A DNA stretch of 64,000 nucleotides, taken from contig CAZBEF010000007.1 of the NCBI GenBank assembly GCA_964490875.1, forward strand, positions 5,241 through 69,240, in the 5' to 3' direction. A program made the translations under genes and the position numbers. Of this stretch, positions 34,493 through 62,520 are shown one piece after another (position 1 is the first letter of the stretch; the number at the start of each line of letters is the position of its first letter). The notes under the pieces were generated by a model. The model saw only the letters and a list, made by a program, of their open reading frames with translations, ran no database searches and was not told the origin of the DNA. This DNA is from an uncultured Gammaproteobacteria bacterium (GTDB lineage Bacteria; Patescibacteriota; Microgenomatia; UBA1406; GWC2-37-13).

Positions 34493-34584
34493 CGTCATTC
34501 CCGCGGACGCGGAAATCAATAAAATTAGATCATCTGATTTTTATTGATTGTATTGTATGGATTCCTGCTTTCGCAGGAATGACG
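34493..34584. mobile_element. MITE-like hairpin-armed inverted-repeat element (family B), intergenic copy
   Basis: Left arm cgtcaTTCCCgcggacgcGGAAAtc, right arm ggATTCCtgctttcgcaGGAATgacg. The termini cgtcattcc/ggaatgacg are inverted repeats, separated by an AT-rich spacer of about 42 bp. It lies between the divergent response regulator and GT-C genes. Confidence 0.75.
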
Positions 34585-34608: not shown

Positions 34609-36288
34609 GTGAAAATTTCAAATAGAGTGATATTTATTTCGATTATTATTTTTGTCTCTCTTCTTCATAGTGTATATCTACCCAATGGTTTTAACTGGCT
34701 TGATCATGGCGATATCGAACGGGGCAGAACAATTTTGCCGACTGCCTCATGGCCGATTCTTTTTGTCAGCCGCTTTGGACAAACCGGATTCTTTCGTCCA
34801 ATAGTCGCACTACTAAATAACATCGACTTTATTTCTTACGGACGTGTGGCAATGGGATATCATCTTACTAATGTTTTACTGCACATGGCAGTAGTACTGA
34901 TGACGCCGGTATTCCTTTCTGTTTTTTTCAAACTTACATACACAGAACAATTTTTAAGTATGGTAATCGTCGGTGTTGCTCCTATTCAGTGGCTGCCTGT
35001 TGGGGCCGTGGCATACCGCCCTGAGATTTTGTATACCTTTTTTGCTATGATTTCTATCTGGTGGTATCACAAGGGGAAGAATCTGACAGCGCTTTTCTTC
35101 TTTATTATGTATGCGCTTTTTTCTAAAGAAACTGCAGTGTATATGATTCCTGTTTTATTGCTTATGGTTGAATTGATGAAGAAGCATCACATAATTCCTG
35201 AAAAAAATATATCTAAACAGAAAATAACGCCCGTCATTCAAAGACTAAGTATTATCGTAGTATCGTTTGTTATTTATTGTGTGCTTCGTGCAATTGCGGT
35301 GCCTCAGATATGGACAGTTCGAAATATACCGCTTAGTTTTTCCGAAGCCTTAGGGACTCGGCTTGTCGCAATAGGAAAACTTGCTGCTCAAATTTTTTCA
35401 CCATTTCTTCCTGGTCTTTCGGACTCGACATACATCTACCAGATAAGTAGTATATTTGCCTTAATGAGCGCCATTGCTATATTAGGAAGTATTTACTACA
35501 TAGTTAGATGCGGTTTAAAATCTAATCTAGCTCGAGTTTTACTATTATTTTGGATTAGTCTTCTGCCGGCATTTAATATTCTTCCCGTCCCACGATTCAG
35601 CTCGCCCCATTATGGATATTTTGCCATGGTTATACTGCCGATGTTTTTTATTTTGTTGATGAGAACTGTCATCCCGATGAAGATCGGGATTCCATTAAAA
35701 AAAAGAAGTGTTTATCTACCGCTATCTGGTGCTAATGGGATTCCGGCCTATGCTGGAATGACATTGATTGGAGCATGGATCATAATCGCGGCCTATTCCA
35801 CATTTATCGGCGGTTTTAGATTCAAAAATGACTACACACTCTTTCAGCCGGCAGTGAAACAGGATGATAATTTTTTGGAAGGCCATCAATATCTGGGTGA
35901 TTACTATTTTTACCGTAACGAATTAAAGCCGGCCTCTGCACATTACGAACGGGCGCTAAAAAAAGAAAAAAACATAATCGCCTTTGTCGATACACCTTCG
36001 GTGCTAAATAATTTGGCCGGAGTCCGAATGATGCAGAATCGTTTTACAGAAGCGGACGCGATTCTCGTTTCACTTCAGAAATTACAAGGTGGAAAAGGAA
36101 ATCTTTCCGTCCGATATAACAGAGCTCTTATTGCATATAAACAGAAAAAATATCAGAAGGTAGTCGATCTTCTGTATGATTCATATAAAAAGTGGAACAG
36201 GCCGGAGCCAATTATTTTGCTCGGCGATAGTCTCAAGAAATTAGGAAAAGAAAAAGAAGCTAAAGTAGTATTAAAACTACTTCAGTAA
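34609..36288 (+). CDS. GT-C fold glycosyltransferase (PMT_2/TMTC-like) with C-terminal TPR
   Basis: Multi-pass membrane protein with FFRPIVALLN..GYHLTNVLLH, as in PMT/TMTC-type mannosyltransferases, and a TPR-like C-terminal region. A GTG start at 34609 is proposed because TATAAT (34597-34602) lies 6 nt upstream. The track ATG at 34579 lies inside a repeat arm. Confidence 0.7.
   Translation: MKISNRVIFISIIIFVSLLHSVYLPNGFNWLDHGDIERGRTILPTASWPILFVSRFGQTGFFRPIVALLNNIDFISYGRVAMGYHLTNVLLHMAVVLMTPVFLSVFFKLTYTEQFLSMVIVGVAPIQWLPVGAVAYRPEILYTFFAMISIWWYHKGKNLTALFFFIMYALFSKETAVYMIPVLLLMVELMKKHHIIPEKNISKQKITPVIQRLSIIVVSFVIYCVLRAIAVPQIWTVRNIPLSFSEALGTRLVAIGKLAAQIFSPFLPGLSDSTYIYQISSIFALMSAIAILGSIYYIVRCGLKSNLARVLLLFWISLLPAFNILPVPRFSSPHYGYFAMVILPMFFILLMRTVIPMKIGIPLKKRSVYLPLSGANGIPAYAGMTLIGAWIIIAAYSTFIGGFRFKNDYTLFQPAVKQDDNFLEGHQYLGDYYFYRNELKPASAHYERALKKEKNIIAFVDTPSVLNNLAGVRMMQNRFTEADAILVSLQKLQGGKGNLSVRYNRALIAYKQKKYQKVVDLLYDSYKKWNRPEPIILLGDSLKKLGKEKEAKVVLKLLQ
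35667..35763. mobile_element. family B MITE-like element inserted in-frame in the GT-C glycosyltransferase CDS
   Basis: Left arm tgtcATCCCgatgaagatcGGGATtcc, right arm gGGATTCCggcctatgctGGAATgaca. Translated in frame as VIPMKIGIPLKKRSVYLPLSGANGIPAYAGMT. Confidence 0.75.
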
Positions 36289-42695: not shown

Positions 42696-44621
42696 TTACA
42701 AACGTGACTTTACTGCTTTTACGATTGCGGCAGAATCAATTCCTTCATACTCCATAAGCTCTGCTGGTGAACCGGAATGCGGAATAGCCTGGGCACATAA
42801 ATGGCTGACAGCAACCGGCTTTGATATTTCTTTCGCGAAGGTAGACAAAACATTCTTTACTGCTTCACCAATTCCGCCGGCCGGATAATGATCTTCGACA
42901 ATAATCACGTGTCCGGATTTTTTAGCCTGAGCAATAATAGTTTTTTCATCAATTGGTTTTACGGAGTACAGATCTACAACCGCAACCTTAATATTTTTCT
43001 GTGATAGTTCGTTATATGCTTTTAAGGCTTCATGAACTGTTATTCCAGCTGCAAAAATCACTGCGGAGTCTGTCGAACTTTCATACAGAACTTTGGATCC
43101 GCCAATCTGAAATGTATATTCCGGTTTATATAATGACTGTGTTTTTTCACGCGTAAGGCGAAGATAGACAATTCCTTCATGATTAAATGCTTGTTCTGTT
43201 AATTTTAATGTTGAAATTGGATCGGACGGATATAATACAACTGATTCCAGAATACTCCGCATCATTGAAATATCTTCCAATGCCATCTGCGAAGATCCAT
43301 CATAGCCGATCGAAACTCCGGCATGAGAACCGACAACTTTAATATTTGATTCGCTGTACTGTGCCATGCGGATTTGGTCAAACGCTCGTGTCAAAAATGC
43401 CGCAAAGCTTGACAAATAGGGAATGAAGCCTACCCGGGCCAGGCCGCAAGCAACACCAACCATATTCTGTTCGGCGATAAACATTTCAAAATAACGGTCG
43501 TGAAATTTCTTCGCGAATTTATCAGCATATGTAGAGTTAGAAGTCTCAGCATCGAGCACAACCAGGTTCGGATATTTTTCGCCCATCATAACTAATGCAT
43601 CGCCATACGCTTCGCGAGTAGCCGCTGGTTTGTCATAACTTATAGCTGATGGCTGATCGCTCATAGCTTGCAGATTTCGGACTTCGGACTTGCGACTTTC
43701 AACTAATTTCTCTGGTTTTTGAATTTCTGGTTTAATAGTTTTATTGACCTCGCCTAGTTCCCGAAGAGCCTGGTCCAGCATGTCTTTTGGCACCGGCTTG
43801 CCATGCCAGTCATCTTTGTTTTCAAGAAATGAAATTCCTTTTCCTTTCATGGTTTTGGCAATAATCATGGTCGGCTTTGTTCTATCAAGAGCCATATCAT
43901 TTGCTGCGCCGTAGATATTGGCATATGCCTGGCGGATTTTTTCTATCTCATGGCCGTCCCACAGAGTAATAACATTCCATCCAAAAGCTTTCACACGGTT
44001 TTCGTACGTCTGTAAATCCCAGGCGAGCATGGTTTCACCGCGCTGGCCCAAACGGTTCACATCCAAAATTCCCACCAGATTACTTGCTTTGTAATGTCCT
44101 GCAATCTCAAGCGCCTCATAAATTTGGCCTTCGGCAAATTCAGAATCACCAAGAAGAACAAATGTTTTTGGTAGGGATTGCTTCGTCGTTCCTCCTCGCA
44201 ATGACGTATCGTTTAATTTTAAATTCACCCCTAATGCAATTCCCAATCCGATAGAAAGCCCCTGGCCAAGCGAGCCGGTGGCTGCTTCGGTATATTTGAA
44301 TTTTGGCGTTGGATGGCCTTCTAAATTGGAATCAAATTTGCGAAGAGTCATCAGTTCATCATAAGAAATTGCTCCTGCAACTTGATAGAGCGAATAGAAG
44401 AGGGGAGACGCATGGCCTTTTGAGAAAATAATACGGTCGTTGAGAATATTGTCTGGATTCTCAAAATCATATCGGTAATATCCGCCATACATAAGTGTCG
44501 CCATCAGTTCTACTGCAGAAAGGGAAGAAGTCGGGTGCCCCGATCCTGCCGCTGTGGAAGATGTGAGAATGTCATAGCGGAGAAGTTTACTAAATTCCTG
44601 AAGTTCTTTGGTAGTTATCAT
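42696..44621 (-). CDS. tkt: transketolase (fused N- and C-terminal halves)
   Basis: GHPTSSLS, GSLGQGL, LLGDSEFAEGQ and C-terminal pyrimidine-binding/transketolase-C-like regions. The start at MITTKEL is supported by TTGACG-N17-TACCAT-N7-ATG. The track TTG start lies inside the -35 box. Confidence 0.9.
   Translation of the reverse strand: MITTKELQEFSKLLRYDILTSSTAAGSGHPTSSLSAVELMATLMYGGYYRYDFENPDNILNDRIIFSKGHASPLFYSLYQVAGAISYDELMTLRKFDSNLEGHPTPKFKYTEAATGSLGQGLSIGLGIALGVNLKLNDTSLRGGTTKQSLPKTFVLLGDSEFAEGQIYEALEIAGHYKASNLVGILDVNRLGQRGETMLAWDLQTYENRVKAFGWNVITLWDGHEIEKIRQAYANIYGAANDMALDRTKPTMIIAKTMKGKGISFLENKDDWHGKPVPKDMLDQALRELGEVNKTIKPEIQKPEKLVESRKSEVRNLQAMSDQPSAISYDKPAATREAYGDALVMMGEKYPNLVVLDAETSNSTYADKFAKKFHDRYFEMFIAEQNMVGVACGLARVGFIPYLSSFAAFLTRAFDQIRMAQYSESNIKVVGSHAGVSIGYDGSSQMALEDISMMRSILESVVLYPSDPISTLKLTEQAFNHEGIVYLRLTREKTQSLYKPEYTFQIGGSKVLYESSTDSAVIFAAGITVHEALKAYNELSQKNIKVAVVDLYSVKPIDEKTIIAQAKKSGHVIIVEDHYPAGGIGEAVKNVLSTFAKEISKPVAVSHLCAQAIPHSGSPAELMEYEGIDSAAIVKAVKSRL
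43676..43700 (-). repeat. (AGTCCGA)n heptamer array in-frame in tkt
   Basis: The reverse complement agtcgca agtccga agtccga encodes SRKSEVRN in the inter-domain linker. Confidence 0.8.
44175..44206. mobile_element. solo family B-type arm (ggattgcttcgtcgttcctcctcgcaatgacg) in-frame in tkt
   Basis: The reverse complement cgtcattgcgaggaggaacgacgaagcaatcc has the cgtca + hairpin arm layout. It encodes TSLRGGTTKQSL within transketolase. Confidence 0.55.
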
Positions 44622-47159: not shown

Positions 47160-48311
47160 TCATCTTGTCACCTGGTAGCTTTTTACGGTTTCCAGAAGTT
47201 TTTTGGCTTCGGCATTCTCTTCGAAATGCTTGCGCACCGGCTGAAGAAGTTCATCAAGCAGTTTAATAACAGTCTGTTTCAAATCCATCGGATGAAGCGA
47301 TTTGTCGGCGTACAATTTTTCCAGTTCTTCATACGACTTAATTTCCAGATTTCCACCAAATTTCTCCGGACGTTCGACTTTAAAGTCCGAAGTCGAAAGT
47401 CCGAAGTCCGAAGCGTCTTCAAGTGCAGGGAAGATGATGTATTTACAGTATTCCAGAACCGGATTTTCTTTAATTTCTCCCTCCGGAGCCCAGGCTTTGG
47501 ATATTTTCCGTTTAATATCTTCTCTCGTATCCGTCATAAATATTGCCGAATCCGGGTGGGACTTCGACATTTTAAGAGCAATTGTTCGGGAAATTTTGTC
47601 ATTTCTGGTTGAACTGTTTTCTGGATCCTTCGCTCCGCTCAGGATGACATCTTGTCCAGATGGTTTCTGCAAACCCATAAGCATATGATGGCTCACTACA
47701 ACCGGTTTCCAGTATCCAAGCATTGGCCCAATTTCGCGGGCGAGCATATTCACTTTCCGCTGATCCATCCCAAGCTGGGTAATTTTAGCTCCAAGGAGAA
47801 ATATATCAGCACACTGCATGCATGGGTAAATAATCTGCGCGGCGGTTAAGTCCATGCTTTCTTCGCGGCCCATAATTTCTGCCGTCCGAATAAACCGTTT
47901 CAGCGAATTTGTTTTCGCAATCTGGAGAACCAGTTTCCAGTAGCTGTCTTTTTTTACGTAATCCGAGGCCCAGTGGAATTCTACATTCGTAAGATCCATT
48001 CCGCATGCTTTCCAGACTTCAATAAAATATTTTCCGACAGTCTGAATTTTTTCCAAGTCGCCGCCCATTTTATTGTTGGCCCAGGCATGCCAGTCGGCAA
48101 CCCACATCTTAAAAGTCACGCCTGCCTTTGTCATTTTATTGACATTAATTGCTTTGAGAAGTCCTTGCGCAATATGAATCTGCCCCGAAGGTTCGAAGCC
48201 GTCGTAGGCAATAATTTTTTCGTTGGAAGAAAGAAGGGCGGTAAGGTCTTCTGTTGTAATTATTTCTTCACCGACTTGCTGAATAAGTTTTATTTTTTCC
48301 TGCAGATCCAT
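47160..48311 (-). CDS. tyrS: tyrosyl-tRNA synthetase, archaeal/eukaryotic-type
   Basis: AYDGFEPSGQIHIAQG (HIGH region), KMSKS, and C-terminal RPEKFGGNLEIKSYEELEKLY..LHPMDLK, which closely resembles M. jannaschii-type TyrRS as I recall it. TATAAT-N6-ATG. Confidence 0.9.
   Translation of the reverse strand: MDLQEKIKLIQQVGEEIITTEDLTALLSSNEKIIAYDGFEPSGQIHIAQGLLKAINVNKMTKAGVTFKMWVADWHAWANNKMGGDLEKIQTVGKYFIEVWKACGMDLTNVEFHWASDYVKKDSYWKLVLQIAKTNSLKRFIRTAEIMGREESMDLTAAQIIYPCMQCADIFLLGAKITQLGMDQRKVNMLAREIGPMLGYWKPVVVSHHMLMGLQKPSGQDVILSGAKDPENSSTRNDKISRTIALKMSKSHPDSAIFMTDTREDIKRKISKAWAPEGEIKENPVLEYCKYIIFPALEDASDFGLSTSDFKVERPEKFGGNLEIKSYEELEKLYADKSLHPMDLKQTVIKLLDELLQPVRKHFEENAEAKKLLETVKSYQVTR
47373..47415 (+). 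repeat. (AGTCCGA)n heptamer array in tyrS, antisense to the gene
   Basis: agtccga agtcgaa agtccga agtccga on the + strand. The gene is on the - strand, so it reads SDFGLSTSDFK. Confidence 0.85.
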
Positions 48312-48399: not shown

Positions 48400-49929
48400 A
48401 TGTATCAAATGGATAATTCACAAAATCAACCGGAACCACCTGCATCCAGCAGTCCATCTTTATCAGATATTTCTGCAGGGAATCCTGTATCTTCGCCTGT
48501 CGACACAACTATAGAATCCAAACCGTTAAGCCAGTCCGATATTTTTCCTTCGTCCGAACCTCAAGCGCCAGTACAATCTTCTCCTCCTCCTGTTTCTTCT
48601 GAACCTGCTGGGCCAGCTCCAGAACAACCAAGTATACCGCCCGTTGAATCAACACCGCCTTCCGTTGGTGAACCGCCAGTACCGCCTCCGCCTCCTCCAA
48701 CACCTCCAGCTATACCTTCGAAAGGCCAGAATAACAAACGGATTGCAATAATTGCCATGATGCTCATTTTCATGTCAGCAATTTTTGCACTCACATTGGT
48801 CTTCCGTTCGACAAAGTTCACAACACAAAATGAAGCAACAACTCCTTCAACCTGTACGTTATATAACACGAATATCGTTTTAGTTATTGACCGTTCCAGT
48901 ACAATGACTCAAAAAGAGTCGGACGGCAGGTCGAAACTAGAATGGGCTAAACAGTCGGCAAAAACACTGGTGTCACGAATCGCTTCTATGACCGGCGCTA
49001 CCGCAAAAATCAGCGTTATTTCGTTCGGAGCGCAGGGGAATGACGGAACAGGTACTCTTTCATCTGATAATAATTCTACTGTTCATATTAGTTTGAGTTC
49101 AGACTTAAATGCGGTTCAAACTGCAATTGATGGAGTCAAATATATTAAGTCGGGTACTTGTATTGAATGCGGAATCCGTCTTGCTAATCAACAGCTAGCT
49201 GCAACAGCATTGAATAGAGTAGTTATTTTACTTTCCGATGGAAAGGCCAATCATGATTGGTTGGGAAAAAGCGCCAATAGTACGGGTGCAATCAATTTTG
49301 CAAATACCGGAAGAAGTTCGGGTATTGTGTACTATGTTCTGGGGTACGGAGTAGGTTCGCAGATAGATGAAACAACATTAAAAGCCATAGCAGGCAAAGC
49401 AGAAAATTATAAATATAAACCAGATGCCACCTCATGGCCGGAAGCGTTCTTAAGCATTGTCGACTTAATCTGTGCATTACCAACTGCTACTCCTACGAAA
49501 ACACCCACGCCTACTCCAACAAAAACGCCTACACCGACACCTACAAAAACACCAACACCATTGCCAACCAAGACGCCTACTCCAACACTAACTAAGACAC
49601 CAACGCCAACGCCTACCAAAACACCGACACCATCACCTACAAAAACGCCGACTCCATCTCCAACAAAAACGCCTACACCGACACCTACAAAAACACCAAC
49701 ACCATTGCCAACCAAGACGCCAACACCTTTACCCACAAAAACACCAACACCTACAACGACATCCACACCAGTGCCAACAAAAACACCCACGCCGTCACCC
49801 ACCAAGACACCAACACCAACTCAAACCTTAACCCCATCGCCAACATCAACCATCACACCGACGCCAACCATGTGTACCGTTCCTAAGGCTGTAACGAATG
49901 TTAAAGTAAGTTGTCCGTTATGTAAGTAA
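48400..49929 (+). CDS. membrane-anchored vWA-domain protein with long TKTPTPxP repeat tail
   Basis: Pro-rich N-terminus, one TM segment, MIDAS-like [11 protein letters not shown] and a vWA-like fold pattern, about 14 repeats of an 8-aa PT unit, and a Cys-containing C-terminus. Confidence 0.8.
49480..49870 (+). repeat. coding tandem repeat, 24-nt period (TKTPTPxP), ~14 units with a 144-nt higher-order duplication
   Basis: Lies in frame in the vWA gene. aaaacgcctacaccgacacctacaaaaacaccaacaccattgccaaccaagacgcc occurs twice, 144 nt apart. Confidence 0.85.
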
Positions 49930-58229: not shown

Positions 58230-59024
58230 ATGAAACGGATTCTTATGTGCCCGCCCGACTATTACGACATTGAGTACGAAATAAACCCGTGGATGCATGT
58301 TTCTAATAAAGTGGATCATGTTAAAGTCCGGGAGTCGTACAAAACAATAAAATCCTTGTATCAATCCTTCGGCGTAGAAGTGTACGAGATTCAAGCTGTG
58401 AAAGGCTTGCCCGACATGGTGTATTCTGCGAATTTTGGTCAAGTAGTAGAGAAGAGCTTCATAAAAGCCAATTTTAAATATCCCCAACGCCGTGCAGAGG
58501 CAGATTTTGCCGCCAAATATTTTGTAGAAACATTCGGTTTTAAAACATTGTCATTGCCCAGTGACATTTTTTTTGAAGGCCAGGGCGATTTGTTGAATGA
58601 CGGCAAACGGTATTTTTTCGGATGGGGGAAACGATCGCAAAAAGAAGCCAAACCATATCTTGAAAAATTTTTGGAAGCAGAAGTTATCGACTTTGAACTA
58701 ATTAATCCCTATTATTATCATCTCGACACATGTTTTGCTCCTCTGCGTCCGGATCTGGTGATGATTAATCCGAAATCGTTCAAGCCGGAAGGCATCAAAA
58801 AAGTCTATGAAAGTTTCGCGAATGTGATTGAGACAAATGATGAAGATAACAAATTTTTAGCGTGTAATTTAATACGTGCGGGAAAAAATATCGTTTTTGC
58901 GAAAGGACAATCTAAACCTTTGCGGGAAAAATTGGAAGGACTTGGATATGTTCTTCATGAAGTTGAAATGGACGAATATATAAAAGGCGGGGGGAGTGTG
59001 AAGTGTGTGAGTTTTGAATTCTAA
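58230..59024 (+). CDS. amidinotransferase/DDAH-family (guanidino-group-modifying enzyme superfamily) protein
   Basis: N-terminus ILMCPPDYYDIEYEINPWM and C-terminus GGGSVKCVSFEF (catalytic-Cys context) are typical of this superfamily. The ATG at 58230 is preferred over the GTG track start. Confidence 0.65.
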   Translation: MKRILMCPPDYYDIEYEINPWMHVSNKVDHVKVRESYKTIKSLYQSFGVEVYEIQAVKGLPDMVYSANFGQVVEKSFIKANFKYPQRRAEADFAAKYFVETFGFKTLSLPSDIFFEGQGDLLNDGKRYFFGWGKRSQKEAKPYLEKFLEAEVIDFELINPYYYHLDTCFAPLRPDLVMINPKSFKPEGIKKVYESFANVIETNDEDNKFLACNLIRAGKNIVFAKGQSKPLREKLEGLGYVLHEVEMDEYIKGGGSVKCVSFEF

Positions 59025-59025
59025 T

Positions 59026-59511
59026 TTATCTTCTTGAGTTGCCGCTTCTTCTTCGGGCAGCTTCTAGATCGGCTTGTACTTGTTGTTCATACATATCAAT
59101 TGCTGGAGTTGTTAATATCTGTTGGGTTTCTTTATCTTTTCTTGTTGGTGTACTTTTTAGAAACGCTATAAATTCTGCCTGATCTGGATGCACTAGTGCA
59201 AGCTCCTGTATTATTTCATCCGCATTTGGCTGGCCGGTAATTAATCTAACCTTCTTAATTATTGCAAGTCTTGCTTCATGAATATTTTTAGGACCATTTT
59301 GTCTTAATTTTTCTGCATCTATTTGAGTTAAGCTTGCTGATAAAGTTGCAATAGAATCTGTTGCGGGTAAATCAAATCCATGATTTTGAAATGACTGCAT
59401 ACGCATATCTATACCGGTAGCAAGAAATGCTAATTCTGACCGGCTAATTTGCGGGAGTTGTTCTTTTTGTGACACTCCCTCTTGACTTTGTGTTTCTGCG
59501 CCTGTTGACAT
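59026..59511 (-). CDS. hypothetical protein (161 aa)
   Basis: ORF convergent with the previous gene. No domain recognised. Confidence 0.5.
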   Translation of the reverse strand: MSTGAETQSQEGVSQKEQLPQISRSELAFLATGIDMRMQSFQNHGFDLPATDSIATLSASLTQIDAEKLRQNGPKNIHEARLAIIKKVRLITGQPNADEIIQELALVHPDQAEFIAFLKSTPTRKDKETQQILTTPAIDMYEQQVQADLEAARRRSGNSRR

Positions 59512-59617
59512 ACATGTTTATAAATTGATATATGAATATAAAATACGCATACAGTGTGATAATTGAGAGATAGCTGCGAAAGAGTTGTGCAAGAAGGACG
59601 CGCTGTTTCATTTCGCA

Positions 59618-59645
59618 TTGCAATCCATGTATTTCCTGATATACT
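59618..59645 (+). promoter_or_regulatory. candidate promoter TTGCAA-N16-TATACT giving a ~185-nt leader for the RRM gene
   Basis: caTTGCAAtccatgtatttcctgaTATACTtattc. Confidence 0.4.
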
Positions 59646-59836
59646 TATTCAGTATTATCGTGTTTCGTATTGTCGTTAGACATCGGAGCGGAAATTTTTG
59701 ATTTTTGTGAAAGATTTTTTTTCAAGCGTTTCATTGCAAGTCGCATACAATTTATCTTCTTATAAAGCTTCAGGTATCCGTACTTATTTTTCTGCTATTA
59801 ATCGTTTATCAATTCGCTCGAAGGGGGTGAGTGTAC

Positions 59837-60205
59837 ATGAATAAAAAGTTATATGTTGGTAATTTGCTATACGAAGTTACCGACGATGAATTATCTCAGT
59901 TATTTTCCCAAGCAGGTACTGTTACTTCTGCTCAGGTAATCCGATATCAAGACACCGGACGCTCAAAAGGCTTCGGTTTCGTTGAGATGTCAACTGAAGA
60001 AGAAGCTCAGAAAGCAATCGATATGTTTAACGGCCAGGACAATAAAGGCCGCAAACTCGTTGTTTCTGAAGCACGACCTATGCAGCCAAGAACTCCAGGT
60101 GGCGGCGGTGGATACCGACGCGGTGGAGACCGAGGTGGTCGCGGTGGTTATGGTGACCGTGGCGGCCGAGGCGGCGATATGGGTGGAGATATGGGAAATA
60201 TGTAA
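59837..60205 (+). CDS. RRM-type glycine-rich RNA-binding protein
   Basis: RNP2 LYVGNL, RNP1 KGFGFVEM and a RGG/GGY-rich tail. SD GGGGGTGA lies upstream of the ATG at 59837. A terminator follows. Confidence 0.9.
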   Translation: MNKKLYVGNLLYEVTDDELSQLFSQAGTVTSAQVIRYQDTGRSKGFGFVEMSTEEEAQKAIDMFNGQDNKGRKLVVSEARPMQPRTPGGGGGYRRGGDRGGRGGYGDRGGRGGDMGGDMGNM

Positions 60206-60230
60206 AAACTATTTCGCATTAGAAATAAAA

Positions 60231-60272
60231 AACGGCAGGTATGTTTCGCAAGAAACCCCCTGTCGTTTTTTT
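60231..60272 (+). terminator. intrinsic terminator after the RRM gene
   Basis: ACGGCAGG-N17-CCTGTCGT stem (one G-U pair) followed by TTTTTTT. Confidence 0.7.
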
Positions 60273-60275
60273 ATA

Positions 60276-60671
60276 TGTCATCCTGATCCGCCTTTGGCGG
60301 AGAAGGATCCAGTAAAATAAAGTATGCCTTCAAAGAACTACTTTGTATATATCCTTGCAAGTAAAAGAAATGGAACTCTATATATTGGAGTAACATCAGA
60401 TCTTATTAAACGTGCATGGGAACACAAGAATTCTATAGTAGAAGGATTTACTAAGAAGTACAAAATAGATCTCCTGGTATATTATGAACAATTTATAGAC
60501 GTAAATCAGGCAATAGCTCGAGAGAAGTATCTTAAAGGAAAAAATAGAAAATTTAAGTTAGGTCTTGTTGAAGAAAAAAATTCTCAATGGGAAGATTTAT
60601 ATGATAAGTTAATTTAATAATTCTGGATTCTTTGCTTCGCCAAGTCAGACTTGGCTTCGCTCAGAATGACA
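60276..60671 (+). mobile_element. family B arms bracketing the GIY-YIG gene (candidate full-length/autonomous element, 396 bp)
   Basis: Left arm 60276-60312 is tgtcatcctgatccgcctttggcggagaaggatccag. Right arm 60623-60671 is ctggattctttgcttcgccaagtcagacttggcttcgctcagaatgaca. The arm termini are the same as in the 85-bp copy in tgt. The CDS fills the interior, with spacers of 11 nt and 5 nt. Confidence 0.65.
60324..60617 (+). CDS. small GIY-YIG nuclease superfamily protein (97 aa)
   Basis: YFVYILASKRNGTLYIGVTSDLIKRAWEHK..GFTKKY..LVYYE..AIAREKYLK matches the short GIY-YIG (COG2827-like) pattern. It is bracketed by inverted repeat arms. Confidence 0.85.
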   Translation: MPSKNYFVYILASKRNGTLYIGVTSDLIKRAWEHKNSIVEGFTKKYKIDLLVYYEQFIDVNQAIAREKYLKGKNRKFKLGLVEEKNSQWEDLYDKLI

Positions 60672-60676
60672 AAGCA

Positions 60677-60713
60677 TGTCATCCTGAGGGAACGAAGTGA
60701 CTGAAGGATCCAG
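60677..60713. mobile_element. additional solo left arm of family B abutting the tgt stop codon
   Basis: tgtcatcctgagggaacgaagtgactgaaggatccag. It ends 2 nt before the tgt stop (60716-60718). Confidence 0.6.
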
Positions 60714-60715
60714 AA

Positions 60716-62068
60716 TCAATAATACCGCAGATATTCGGCCTTTAATTCTCCGAACCGGTTTACGGGAATTGCCTGCCGGATTTCTTCCATTAAATCGGCG
60801 AAGAATTGAATGTTGTGAACTGTTGCATAGAAAAATGAGCGCGGATCTTTCTGCAGAAATAATTCGTACAATTGCTGCCCCGTGATTTTTTGACTGCATG
60901 CGATACACTTACAATCTATTGCGATCGGTTCATTTTGCGTCTTTATTTTCTTGACGGCAATTCTTCCCCGTTTGGTATACAGCATTTTATGCCGAGCTTC
61001 GCGGGTAGGAATAACGCAGTCAAACAGGTCGACGCCGCGTTCAACACCTTCAAAAATGTCGTCTACTTGTCCGATTCCCAGCAAATGTCTTGGTTTCTCG
61101 TTAGGCAGATGGGGCATAATCCATTCCAGAACCTGATGCATATTTTTTTTGCTGTCGCCAAAGCTGTTGCCGAAACTGCCGCCGATTCCAAAACCGGGAA
61201 CGTCGTGTTTGGCACACAGTTTGGCGGATTTTATTCGCAAGTCCTGCCATTCACTGCCTTGGACGATGGCAAATAATGCTTGGGGATTTTTCGTCATTGG
61301 TATTTGTTTGTCATCCTGATCCCGATAGCCATCGGGAGAAGGATCCAGGGCATTAACGTTTATTCTGGATTCTTCGCTTCGCTCAGAATGACAAGAGAGA
61401 AGTTTATGTTTTGTGATACACCTTTCCAGCCAGCGGTCCGTTAATTCAACCGATTTAGAAACGTATTCTTTCGAATTGAACGGCGAAGTGCATTCATCGA
61501 AGGCAAACATTATATCGGCGCCAATCTGGTGCTGCAGTTCCATAGAAAGTTCCGGTGTCAGCGTTCTTTCTTCATCACTTGCCCCGTCGAAGTCCCGACC
61601 GGAGGTAGGGGACGAAGAGGGGTTCCAGCGAAAAGTAACTCCTTCTTCGGTAATAATCAGTGGATTATCGTCATCGTGACTTGTTACAGTAGAAGAATCG
61701 GGCTTAGCAAGTTTGCCAACCTTATGTGTTTTTCCAAATCCTAAAGAAAATACTTGGAATCCTCCTGAATCGGAAGCGACTATACCTGGGAAACCACCAT
61801 ATTCATGAACAGTCTTCGGACTTCGGACTTGTTTCTTCGGACTATCATGAATTTTTTCAATAATATTTTTCGTCCAAATGTGGAAGGTGTTTACTATGCT
61901 GTAGTTTAAGGGGAGTGTATGCGTTACACCAGGGGGAATGCCTTTTATTTGGCCTTCGGTGCCGACAATGGCAAGGGAAGGTGTGTGGAGTGTTCCGTGC
62001 GGTGTTTTGAATTCTCCAGTGCGCGCTTTAGTTTTGGCGTCCTGTGCAGTTAGTTTATATTCGAACAT
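60716..62068 (-). CDS. tgt: queuine tRNA-ribosyltransferase (tRNA-guanine transglycosylase) carrying in-frame repeat insertions
   Basis: TPHGTLHTPSLAIVGT, SDSGGFQVFSL, FDECTS, FAIVQGS, GFGIGG, LFDCVIPTR, zinc site CKCIAC..H and VHNIQFF. At 450 aa it is longer than the roughly 375 aa typical of bacterial Tgt. Confidence 0.9.
   Translation of the reverse strand: MFEYKLTAQDAKTKARTGEFKTPHGTLHTPSLAIVGTEGQIKGIPPGVTHTLPLNYSIVNTFHIWTKNIIEKIHDSPKKQVRSPKTVHEYGGFPGIVASDSGGFQVFSLGFGKTHKVGKLAKPDSSTVTSHDDDNPLIITEEGVTFRWNPSSSPTSGRDFDGASDEERTLTPELSMELQHQIGADIMFAFDECTSPFNSKEYVSKSVELTDRWLERCITKHKLLSCHSERSEESRINVNALDPSPDGYRDQDDKQIPMTKNPQALFAIVQGSEWQDLRIKSAKLCAKHDVPGFGIGGSFGNSFGDSKKNMHQVLEWIMPHLPNEKPRHLLGIGQVDDIFEGVERGVDLFDCVIPTREARHKMLYTKRGRIAVKKIKTQNEPIAIDCKCIACSQKITGQQLYELFLQKDPRSFFYATVHNIQFFADLMEEIRQAIPVNRFGELKAEYLRYY
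61309..61393. mobile_element. family B MITE (85 bp) inserted in-frame in tgt
   Basis: tgtcatcctgatcccgatagccatcgggagaaggatccag + ggcattaacgtttatt + ctggattcttcgcttcgctcagaatgaca. On the coding strand it reads SCHSERSEESRINVNALDPSPDGYRDQDDK. Compared with the arm at 60276, the inner hairpin shows compensatory changes (CCGCC/GGCGG versus CCCGAT/ATCGGG). Confidence 0.8.
61813..61843 (-). repeat. (AGTCCGA)n heptamer array in-frame in tgt
   Basis: The reverse complement agtccga agaaaca agtccga agtccga encodes SPKKQVRSPKT. Confidence 0.8.
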
Positions 62069-62076
62069 ACAGGTAG

Positions 62077-62082
62077 ATTATA
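62077..62082 (-). promoter_or_regulatory. -10 box TATAAT, 8 nt upstream of the tgt ATG
   Basis: Minus strand: gcTATAATctacctgtATG. Confidence 0.45.
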
Positions 62083-62124
62083 GCATTGGACAACGGACTA
62101 TTGATTCATCTGTTTAGTTACTAT

Positions 62125-62463
62125 TTAAAAGTTACATCCTTGTGGACATTTATGATCTGTGTGATCTGGTCTGTCAGTTACTGTGCAATATTCAAGATGT
62201 GGTTTACAAATTGCTCCACATACTACAGACGCAGCGTCCACATTGCGATGCGAATAGTTCATGAATAAACCATTCTTTATGGTTGGCGTTGGTACTTGAT
62301 TTTTTGAAATAGTTGTAACTAGTGCTACCAATAATTTCCCTATGTCAATAGCTCCAACAGGGATTCTTCTTTCATTCGTGATTACTGCTCCACCGGCCTG
62401 ATTAACTGGTTTTTCTTGAGTAGTAGCTGACTGTGTTATTTGTAATAATTCGCATGGAGGCAT
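62125..62463 (-). CDS. hypothetical small protein with Cys-rich C-terminus
   Basis: 112-aa ORF with the C-terminus CGAICKPHLEYC..HKCPQGC. It lies between a duplicated tgt promoter/5' fragment and the intact tgt gene. Confidence 0.4.
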   Translation of the reverse strand: MPPCELLQITQSATTQEKPVNQAGGAVITNERRIPVGAIDIGKLLVALVTTISKNQVPTPTIKNGLFMNYSHRNVDAASVVCGAICKPHLEYCTVTDRPDHTDHKCPQGCNF

Positions 62464-62520
62464 GGAATTTAAAAAAATTAGTAATTAATAAATCAGATCA
62501 TATTTTACTATAAGGTGTAA

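Follow-up and report, generated by a model that had tools for sequence, protein, structure and literature searches.

A GIY-YIG nuclease gene enclosed by inverted hairpin units

The window analysed here, a stretch of 64,000 nucleotides from contig CAZBEF010000007.1 of a member of the Patescibacteria, contains between positions 60276 and 60713 a small gene for a GIY-YIG nuclease, which is enclosed by two hairpin-forming repeat units in inverted orientation and followed by a third unit. The whole arrangement lies between two convergent genes, one encoding an RRM protein and the other tgt, and comprises the following features.

60227..60271, + strand: terminator hairpin of the RRM-protein gene (inverted repeat I23), conserved left boundary of the inserted block
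60276..60312, + strand: left hairpin unit, TGTCATCCTGA-TCCGCCTTTGGCGGA-GAAGGATCCAG (whole + strand TGTCATCCTGATCCGCCTTTGGCGGAGAAGGATCCAG)
60313..60323, + strand: junction of 11 nt between the left unit and the ATG (upstream median in 56 canonical related loci, 11 nt)
60324..60617, + strand: ssn-type gene for a 97-aa single-domain GIY-YIG nuclease, ATG start (Pfam PF01541, E=7e-14)
60618..60622, + strand: junction of 5 nt from the stop codon to the right unit (downstream median in relatives, 4 nt)
60623..60671, - strand: right hairpin unit, inverted, TGTCATTCTGAGCGAAG-CCAAGTCTGACTTGG-CGAAGCAAAGAATCCAG (+ strand CTGGATTCTTTGCTTCGCCAAGTCAGACTTGGCTTCGCTCAGAATGACA, which reads as such a unit when reverse-complemented)
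60677..60713, + strand: third unit, head-to-head with the right unit after a 5-nt gap, its end separated by 2 nt from the stop codon of tgt, which is convergent

The left unit is composed of a TGTC tag, a base stem (ATCCT/AGGAT), a tandem GA, an inner hairpin (TCCGCC-TTTG-GCGGA) and a CCAG tail, and folds as single-stranded DNA (ssDNA) with -9.5 kcal/mol (z = -3.5). In the right unit (-9.3 kcal/mol, z = -3.0), the simple 29-nt unit is extended by a perfect palindrome of 13 nt, CAAGTCTGACTTG, with the 7-nt direct repeat GCGAAGC on either side; the extension resembles a very small insertion accompanied by a duplication, or else an expansion of the apex from a template. The heptamer GCGAAGC itself is known as a DNA mini-hairpin of very high stability. 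Together with the left unit of a repeat dimer within tgt (see below), both units fold as ssDNA with a common architecture (z = -3.0 to -3.75), in which the 4-nt TGTC tag is unpaired, a base stem of 5 bp leads via a 2x2 internal loop (GA/GA) into an inner hairpin whose sequence varies, and CCAG forms the tail. The base stem covaries, being ATCCT/AGGAT (C:G) in four units and ATTCT/AGAAT (T:A) in two. With nearest-neighbour parameters, the predicted fold of the two short simple units is weak. All six main units of the window start with TGTC and end with CCAG, in agreement with the tag (CGTC or TGTC) and the CCA tail of the CGTC-type repeats discussed below; their stems open with AT...AT and consist of 5 bp, after which come the GA/GA internal loop and 2-7 bp of inner stem. 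The pattern GTCATYCTGA-N8-30-GRATCC has 6 matches in the window, compared to 0.01 expected from shuffled sequences.

That the 97-aa open reading frame (ORF) is bracketed with spacers of 11 and 5 nt had been proposed in an earlier note on this DNA and proved correct to the base, as did the presence in tgt of an 85-bp element with the same arm termini and a 16-nt joint, which is found at 61309-61393. The note had also held that the left unit beside the gene and that in tgt differ in their inner hairpins by compensatory substitutions, and indeed these two hairpins are unlike in sequence while each is self-complementary. The third unit had been described as a solo left arm. Its position and both of its termini are as claimed, but its interior is degenerate and folds no better than shuffled sequences (z = +0.4); since the termini are kept and the interior does not fold, we consider this unit a decayed copy.

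Membership in the Ssn family and flanking of related genes

For many bacteria, small genes of GIY-YIG proteins (Ssn) with CGTC-type hairpins on their flanks were recently described (Chenal et al., Nat Commun 2025; PMC11893778). The hairpin of Neisseria, NTS, reads CGTCATTCCCGCGMAVGCGGGAATCYRG, and SsnA, a protein of about 94 aa, binds this hairpin only as ssDNA and cuts one strand a few nt 5' of it; Y6, Y17 and E64 of SsnA are catalytic residues according to mutagenesis (PMC11893778). The protein encoded in the window contains the domain PF01541 at residues 5-78 and no further domain in a Pfam search, and as a single-domain GIY-YIG protein of less than 150 aa it has the size expected for the family. 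For comparison we used the NTS-flanked gonococcal orthologue (94 aa) and not the N. meningitidis protein itself. The similarity to this orthologue (tblastn against N. gonorrhoeae NZ_CP119140.1, E=4e-25, 98% coverage; BLASTP, 53% identity over 90 aa, E=1e-35 in pairwise comparison) lies well within the homology criterion of Chenal et al., i.e. E < 1e-10 to Neisseria SsnA over at least 75% of the length. Residues Y9, Y20 and E67 align with the three catalytic residues of SsnA, and these positions are invariant in an alignment of 46 homologues. Furthermore, hairpin repeats are present both 5' and 3' of the gene (11 nt upstream, 5 nt downstream) and are inverted, as in other Ssn loci. By its sequence, the locus is a somewhat divergent member of the Ssn/SRM family in the Patescibacteria.

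The remaining database matches are weak: NCBIfam TIGR01453 scores below its cutoff (E=3e-4), the homing endonuclease family PHROG 314 reaches E=8e-4, and a sequence search of the PDB recovered distant UPF0213 structures only (E = 0.02-0.09). By tblastn, the window contains one GIY-YIG gene. A reading of the locus as a defence system was dropped, as no PADLOC model matched. PLSDB, from which the SsnA orthologue was obtained, files two 2.17-Mb Neisseria gonorrhoeae chromosomes, NZ_CP119140.1 and NZ_CP119142.1, as plasmids.

The flanking of related genes was analysed for 160 loci, 80 from species-representative genomes (retrieved with a homologue profile) and 80 from metagenomes (retrieved with the protein alone). 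Hairpins occur on both sides of the gene in 105 of them. In the genome set, whose proteins are 54-69% identical and derive from Patescibacteria, Planctomycetota, Pseudomonadota, Cyanobacteriota, Chloroflexota and others, a unit is present upstream in 54/80, downstream in 64/80 and on both sides in 48/80 loci; the corresponding numbers for the metagenome set are 64/80, 64/80 and 57/80. Unit density in the genome set is 7.1 per kb in the 150-bp flanks of the gene versus 0.31 per kb elsewhere in the loci (approximately 23-fold). The prevailing orientation, + upstream and - downstream, is that of the window, and the junctions are of similar length (medians of 11 and 4 nt, compared to 11 and 5 nt in the window). 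The published NTS consensus, with T or C allowed at its first base, matches beside the gene in 22/80 loci of each set. In many homologues the C-terminus is extended (e.g. by SGLPDQVGQ or SGFPGQARE) where the ORF enters the downstream unit and ends at the TGA of ATGAC(A/G); such run-in is found in L022, L031, L032, L054, L056, L141 and L144. In addition, some flanking units in L010, L011, L033, L139 and L151 hold a second hairpin nested in the loop (e.g. TGTCATTCCCGACACGTCCCCGCAAAGCGGGGACTGATCGGGAATCCAG), which suggests the insertion of one unit-like hairpin into another.

The likeness to the Ssn/NTS system thus includes a single-domain GIY-YIG protein of about 95 aa, a 5' YGTCAT tag, a 3' ATCCAG tail, inverted flanks and many genomic copies of the repeat. 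The window differs in its arms, whose base stem is limited to 5 bp and followed by a tandem GA internal loop and an inner hairpin that varies, and which lie outside the SRM motif used by Chenal et al., and in its host, a member of the candidate phyla radiation (CPR); moreover, intragenic units are frequent (at least 4 in 64 kb), whereas only 2% of the NTS of N. meningitidis are intragenic (PMC11893778).

The arms also resemble the repetitive extragenic palindromes (REPs) with CGTC or TGTC tags compiled by Di Nocera et al. (BMC Genomics 2013; PMC3733652), which include Neisseria dRS3 and Rickettsia RPE-4/RPE-6 and for which these authors concluded that there is no dedicated enzyme. Both have an unpaired TGTC tag, a CCA tail and a stem that opens with A-T/T-A, and both form inverted dimers, often as heterodimers, as well as intragenic dimers encoding 20-30 residues; the repeats of the window are likewise multi-copy and often arranged as inverted dimers (at least 12 units, three gene-less dimers). 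In contrast to the stems described in 2013, which have 8-9 continuous bp and 4-5-nt loops, the window units carry variable nested hairpins in place of the apex.

Other systems share single features with the locus. RAYT-REP/REPIN systems and IS200/IS605 elements, which employ HUH Y1 transposases, likewise have a small gene within inverted hairpin copies, dispersed gene-less singlets and dimers, and an enzyme that acts on folded ssDNA. The enzymes are unrelated in fold and chemistry, as their tyrosine transposase forms a covalent intermediate whereas GIY-YIG enzymes are hydrolytic, and the REP tag is GTAG rather than CGTC; with neither an HUH Y1 transposase nor a GTAG tag in the window, the analogy is one of layout alone. 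With GIY-YIG homing endonucleases of the I-TevI type the protein shares the catalytic domain, and spread of the nuclease gene by break repair is conceivable here as well, but it has neither a DNA-binding extension nor an intron or phage context, and its targets would be ssDNA hairpins and not a long duplex site. As in insertion sequences and their MITEs (miniature transposable elements with inverted repeats), short and long copies have common termini, but the sole ORF of the unit encodes a GIY-YIG hydrolase and no transposase domain is present.

Gene-less units, an empty site and common arm types

Looser, structure-aware scans revealed at least 12 tagged units in the window, including three gene-less dimers, and at least 4 in-frame intragenic insertion events. 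The units located outside the arm-gene-arm block are listed below.

61309..61393, + unit, 16 nt, - unit: tgt dimer, 85 bp, same left/right pair as the gene-bearing unit
61309..61348, + strand: left-type unit of the tgt dimer, antisense to tgt, encoding LDPSPDGYRDQDDK
61349..61364, + strand: spacer of the tgt dimer, 16 nt, of which 10/16 positions match the joined 11 + 5 nt gene junctions (weak, AT-rich DNA)
61365..61393, - strand: right-type simple unit of the tgt dimer, sense to tgt, encoding CHSERSEESR
47621..47649, - strand: lone simple unit within a class-I aminoacyl-tRNA synthetase-like gene and in its frame, encoding VILSGAKDP
44174..44206, - strand: lone unit CGTCATTGCGAGGAGGAACGACGAAGCAATCCC within the gene for transketolase and in its frame (TSLRGGTTKQSLP)
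35667..35763: dimer belonging to a second subtype, canonical and CGTC-like (TGTCATCCCGATGAAGATCGGGATTCCA and TGTCATTCCAGCATAGGCCGGAATCCCA), in frame in the gene of a 569-aa membrane protein (VIPMKIGIP...GIPAYAGMT)
34493..34584, + unit 34493-34519 and - unit 34558-34584: tail-to-tail dimer immediately upstream of the 569-aa ORF

The tgt dimer, which gives rise to a 28-residue insert in Tgt, folds as a whole with -19.6 kcal/mol (z = -4.8). Compared to the arms of the gene-bearing unit, it shows 1 mismatch between units on the same side versus 9 between units on opposite sides, and its 16-nt spacer equals the sum of the two gene junctions (11 + 5 nt). This mirroring extends to related loci. Where a heterodimeric pair of arms beside the gene could be compared with a separate dimer (the window and 7 others contributing to the same-side cases), same-side units are closer in 8/10 comparisons, opposite-side units in none, with 2 ties. 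The spacer of gene-less + / - dimers has a median of 15 nt, and both gene junctions summed have a median of 17 nt.

Homologues of Tgt assign the organism to the Roizmanbacteria-like Patescibacteria. The convergent pair of the RRM gene and tgt is syntenic in three relatives, whose Tgt proteins are 70-78% identical to that of the window, and the terminator of the RRM gene (60227-60271) is kept in all of them. One relative (L004) shows an empty site, in which the terminator directly abuts the tgt stop codon without any insert; at the same site L002 carries a different, gene-less CGTC dimer and L003 an unrelated 86-aa ORF. As the site is either empty or differently filled in these relatives, positions 60276-60713 behave as a discrete block of approximately 438 bp. 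The loop of tgt that holds the dimer of the window likewise exists in three states, namely the dimer, one antisense unit with a different apex (L002, 3843-3873) and a 12-nt remnant (L004, CGTCATTGCGAG, at about 1060-1075). The presence of related units or remnants at this site in L002 and L004 indicates that the tgt insertion predates these species, and its age, taken together with its near-identity to the local gene arms, argues for replacement or gene conversion and not for a fresh hop. Another Tgt protein (P0127) contains a further REP-like insert (RDPDLHRDDK) at a different loop. The tRNA synthetase genes of L002 and L003 represent a different paralogue (25% identity) and cannot be used for dating the synthetase insert.

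A metagenome-assembled genome (MAG) of bacterium SpSt-1139 contains two arm-gene-arm units in different contexts (L034, 3951-4313, and L049, 2839-3201), which are 81% identical. Their homology begins at the left arm and passes through the right arm, where locus L034 ends, and the arms are better conserved than the gene.

Several expectations raised by the earlier note can be judged by these data. The systematic flanking of related small GIY-YIG genes and the likeness of gene-linked arms to those of short copies, both suggested there as checks, were borne out. Its proposal that the short copies are derivatives of the gene-bearing unit agrees with the common arm types and the spacer lengths, but the tgt insertion is old and shows no sign of a fresh hop; similarly, the search for empty and occupied sites yielded an empty site in a relative, but neither polymorphism among strains nor target-site duplications were seen. 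Its statement that the relationship between nuclease and repeat had not been described does not hold, since the association was published by Chenal et al. in 2025 (PMC11893778). The pairing of gene and hairpins is that of the published Ssn/NTS system and not a new element type, and CGTC REPs and RPEs located within genes became known between 2000 and 2013. New here are the example from the Patescibacteria, the arm variant outside the published motif with its modular, variable apex, and the comparative evidence bearing on mobility, i.e. the empty site, the mirrored arm types and the spacer arithmetic.

In the second-subtype unit at 35667-35694 the stem is continuous over 8 bp and the loop measures 4 nt. 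The predicted ATG (34579) of the 569-aa ORF sits within the ATGACG of the - unit at 34558-34584, and this repeat may supply, or falsely extend, the start of the ORF. Elsewhere in the window, a 509-aa ORF at 48400-49929 contains a long C-terminal run of (PTPTKT)n-type repeats.

Function and mobility of the nuclease-repeat system

Very probably, the locus is an Ssn/SRM locus of Roizmanbacteria-like Patescibacteria, in which an SsnA-family gene is situated in the spacer of a YGTC-tagged REP pair that has cognate repeats dispersed over the genome. According to this explanation the gene would occupy the spacer of tail-to-tail hairpins of the CGTC-REP/NTS superfamily, with a third, decayed unit following, and the whole block of about 438 bp would have been inserted, relative to the syntenic relative, between the terminator of the RRM gene and the tgt stop codon. 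Homology with SsnA makes it most likely that the protein binds any unit whose strand is single-stranded and folded. Recognition would involve the TGTCAT tag on the 5' side, the stem base and the tail, ATCCAG, and hydrolysis would take place a few nt 5' of the tag; that the window protein cleaves ssDNA at all is inferred by analogy. At a + / - pair the predicted cuts would fall just outside the units and on opposite strands, and within the 5-nt gap of the head-to-head pair (60671/60677) as well. The gene-less dimers and single units in the genes for Tgt, the synthetase, transketolase and the membrane protein would then be the partner repeats of the system, and the fact that four of a unit's six reading frames are open probably explains why in-frame copies are tolerated.

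Several observations weigh against this explanation or against recent mobility of the locus. The published SRM motif, HGTCWYN(0-2)YYVSBRHN(0-5)WNVSBRGN(0-2)RNCYNB, has no match in the whole window and matches none of the six arms, so that cognate recognition of the variant arms by the window nuclease is an assumption; judged by this motif the gene would count as unflanked, the motif being a search tool and not the definition of the protein family (PMC11893778). Variant arms similar to those of the window flank homologues in L126/L131 and L127, which are only about 60% identical, and the closest homologues (66-70% identity) bear canonical arms; protein identity and arm type therefore do not obviously co-vary. 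Neither at 60276/60713 nor around the tgt dimer can a target-site duplication be seen, although the flanks there are too diverged from those of the relatives for certainty. Polymorphism at the strain level was not found; L001, the sole other contig with the exact gene, has the same arrangement over its 1.1 kb, and exact-protein look-ups of Tgt and of the RRM protein of the window (with two start choices) retrieved no strain-level empty site on record. Finally, a homologue (P0117) that occurs in identical form has one and the same context in all 8 places among the matches listed (24 contigs).

Could the hairpins simply be transcription signals, normal terminators or attenuators whose position next to a small nuclease gene is accidental? 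The units are located in a convergent intergenic region beside a terminator, and REPs are often found downstream of genes (PMC3733652), but the approximately 23-fold enrichment beside homologous genes in unrelated genomes effectively refutes coincidence, as does the frequency of the unit pattern in the window, which is far above chance. In addition, the units have no T-tracts and include copies within coding sequences, no Rfam family matches in 59000-62500 even at a permissive threshold, and promoter and terminator scans found no site, the loop of the evident terminator being too long for the terminator scan. We thus regard this possibility as extremely improbable. A host function of the kind proposed for Neisseria deserves more consideration, although we think it rather unlikely: a domesticated nuclease would trim incoming or exposed ssDNA at the repeats and thereby modulate recombination or transformation, the repeats would be maintained without being currently mobile, and the flanking units would mark or regulate the gene. 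SsnA reduces transformation by NTS-containing DNA in N. meningitidis (PMC11893778), and both the stable context of P0117 and the single gene in the window fit such a role. Domestication does not account, however, for gene-less dimers that copy the left and right arm types of the gene-bearing unit, for in-frame units in housekeeping genes or for the absence of the block from a syntenic relative, and the window itself holds no evidence of competence.

At the other extreme, the arm-gene-arm unit might be an autonomous transposable element whose nuclease excises and reinserts it and whose internally deleted derivatives are the short, MITE-like dimers. The common inverted arms in the same left/right order, the spacer of the dimers that approximates the summed gene junctions, and the presence or absence of the block at a conserved intergenic site are all in agreement with this explanation, and so are the two paralogous copies in the MAG of SpSt-1139 and the 54-70% protein identity across very distant phyla, which suggests horizontal spread. 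Chenal et al. called the NTS-ssnA-NTS layout "identical to" insertion sequences; mobility was left untested in their paper (PMC11893778), and full-text literature searches found no later paper with Ssn-dependent transposition. Still, we consider autonomy unlikely. GIY-YIG enzymes hydrolyse DNA, are not known to have a strand-transfer chemistry and cannot themselves rejoin DNA. On each strand only one of the two arms would be cleavable, so that a peel-and-paste cycle as in IS200/IS605 does not follow. One gene copy faces at least 12 units in the window, and among the 160 loci we found no near-identical gene-bearing units in different contexts; near-identical pairs represent the same locus in different samples. 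The lack of visible target-site duplications, the constant context of P0117 and the related units or remnants in tgt of two sister genomes, which make that insertion old and not recent, point in the same direction.

If the nuclease cannot rejoin DNA, any spread must proceed via host repair or replication, and its logic would be nearer to RAYT/REPIN systems or homing than to a classical transposon. It is possible, although somewhat doubtful, that the nuclease drives the spread or homogenisation of the repeats in trans in a RAYT/REPIN-like manner and without being part of a self-contained transposon. Slightly more tentative is the wider proposal that Ssn is the missing enzyme of CGTC-type REPs and RPE-like elements. 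One stable gene would nick folded ssDNA units, and host repair would copy, replace or homogenise the dimers in trans, including in-frame copies in essential genes of the reduced CPR genome; recognition would be limited to tag, base stem and tail, which would leave the apex free for nested modules.

CGTC-type repeats such as Neisseria dRS3 and the protein-inserting palindromic elements of Rickettsia were without an enzyme in 2013, and a candidate emerged from the Ssn paper of 2025. For the question of mobility the window represents a compact natural case, with one ssn gene, at least 12 units, a clean empty site in a relative, gene-less dimers that mirror the arms of the gene and four housekeeping genes with in-frame copies. 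Moreover, as the published motif misses nested or mismatched stems, the repeat family is under-counted, and flanking units may be present beside Ssn genes that were scored as having none, which touches any census of nuclease presence versus repeat load.

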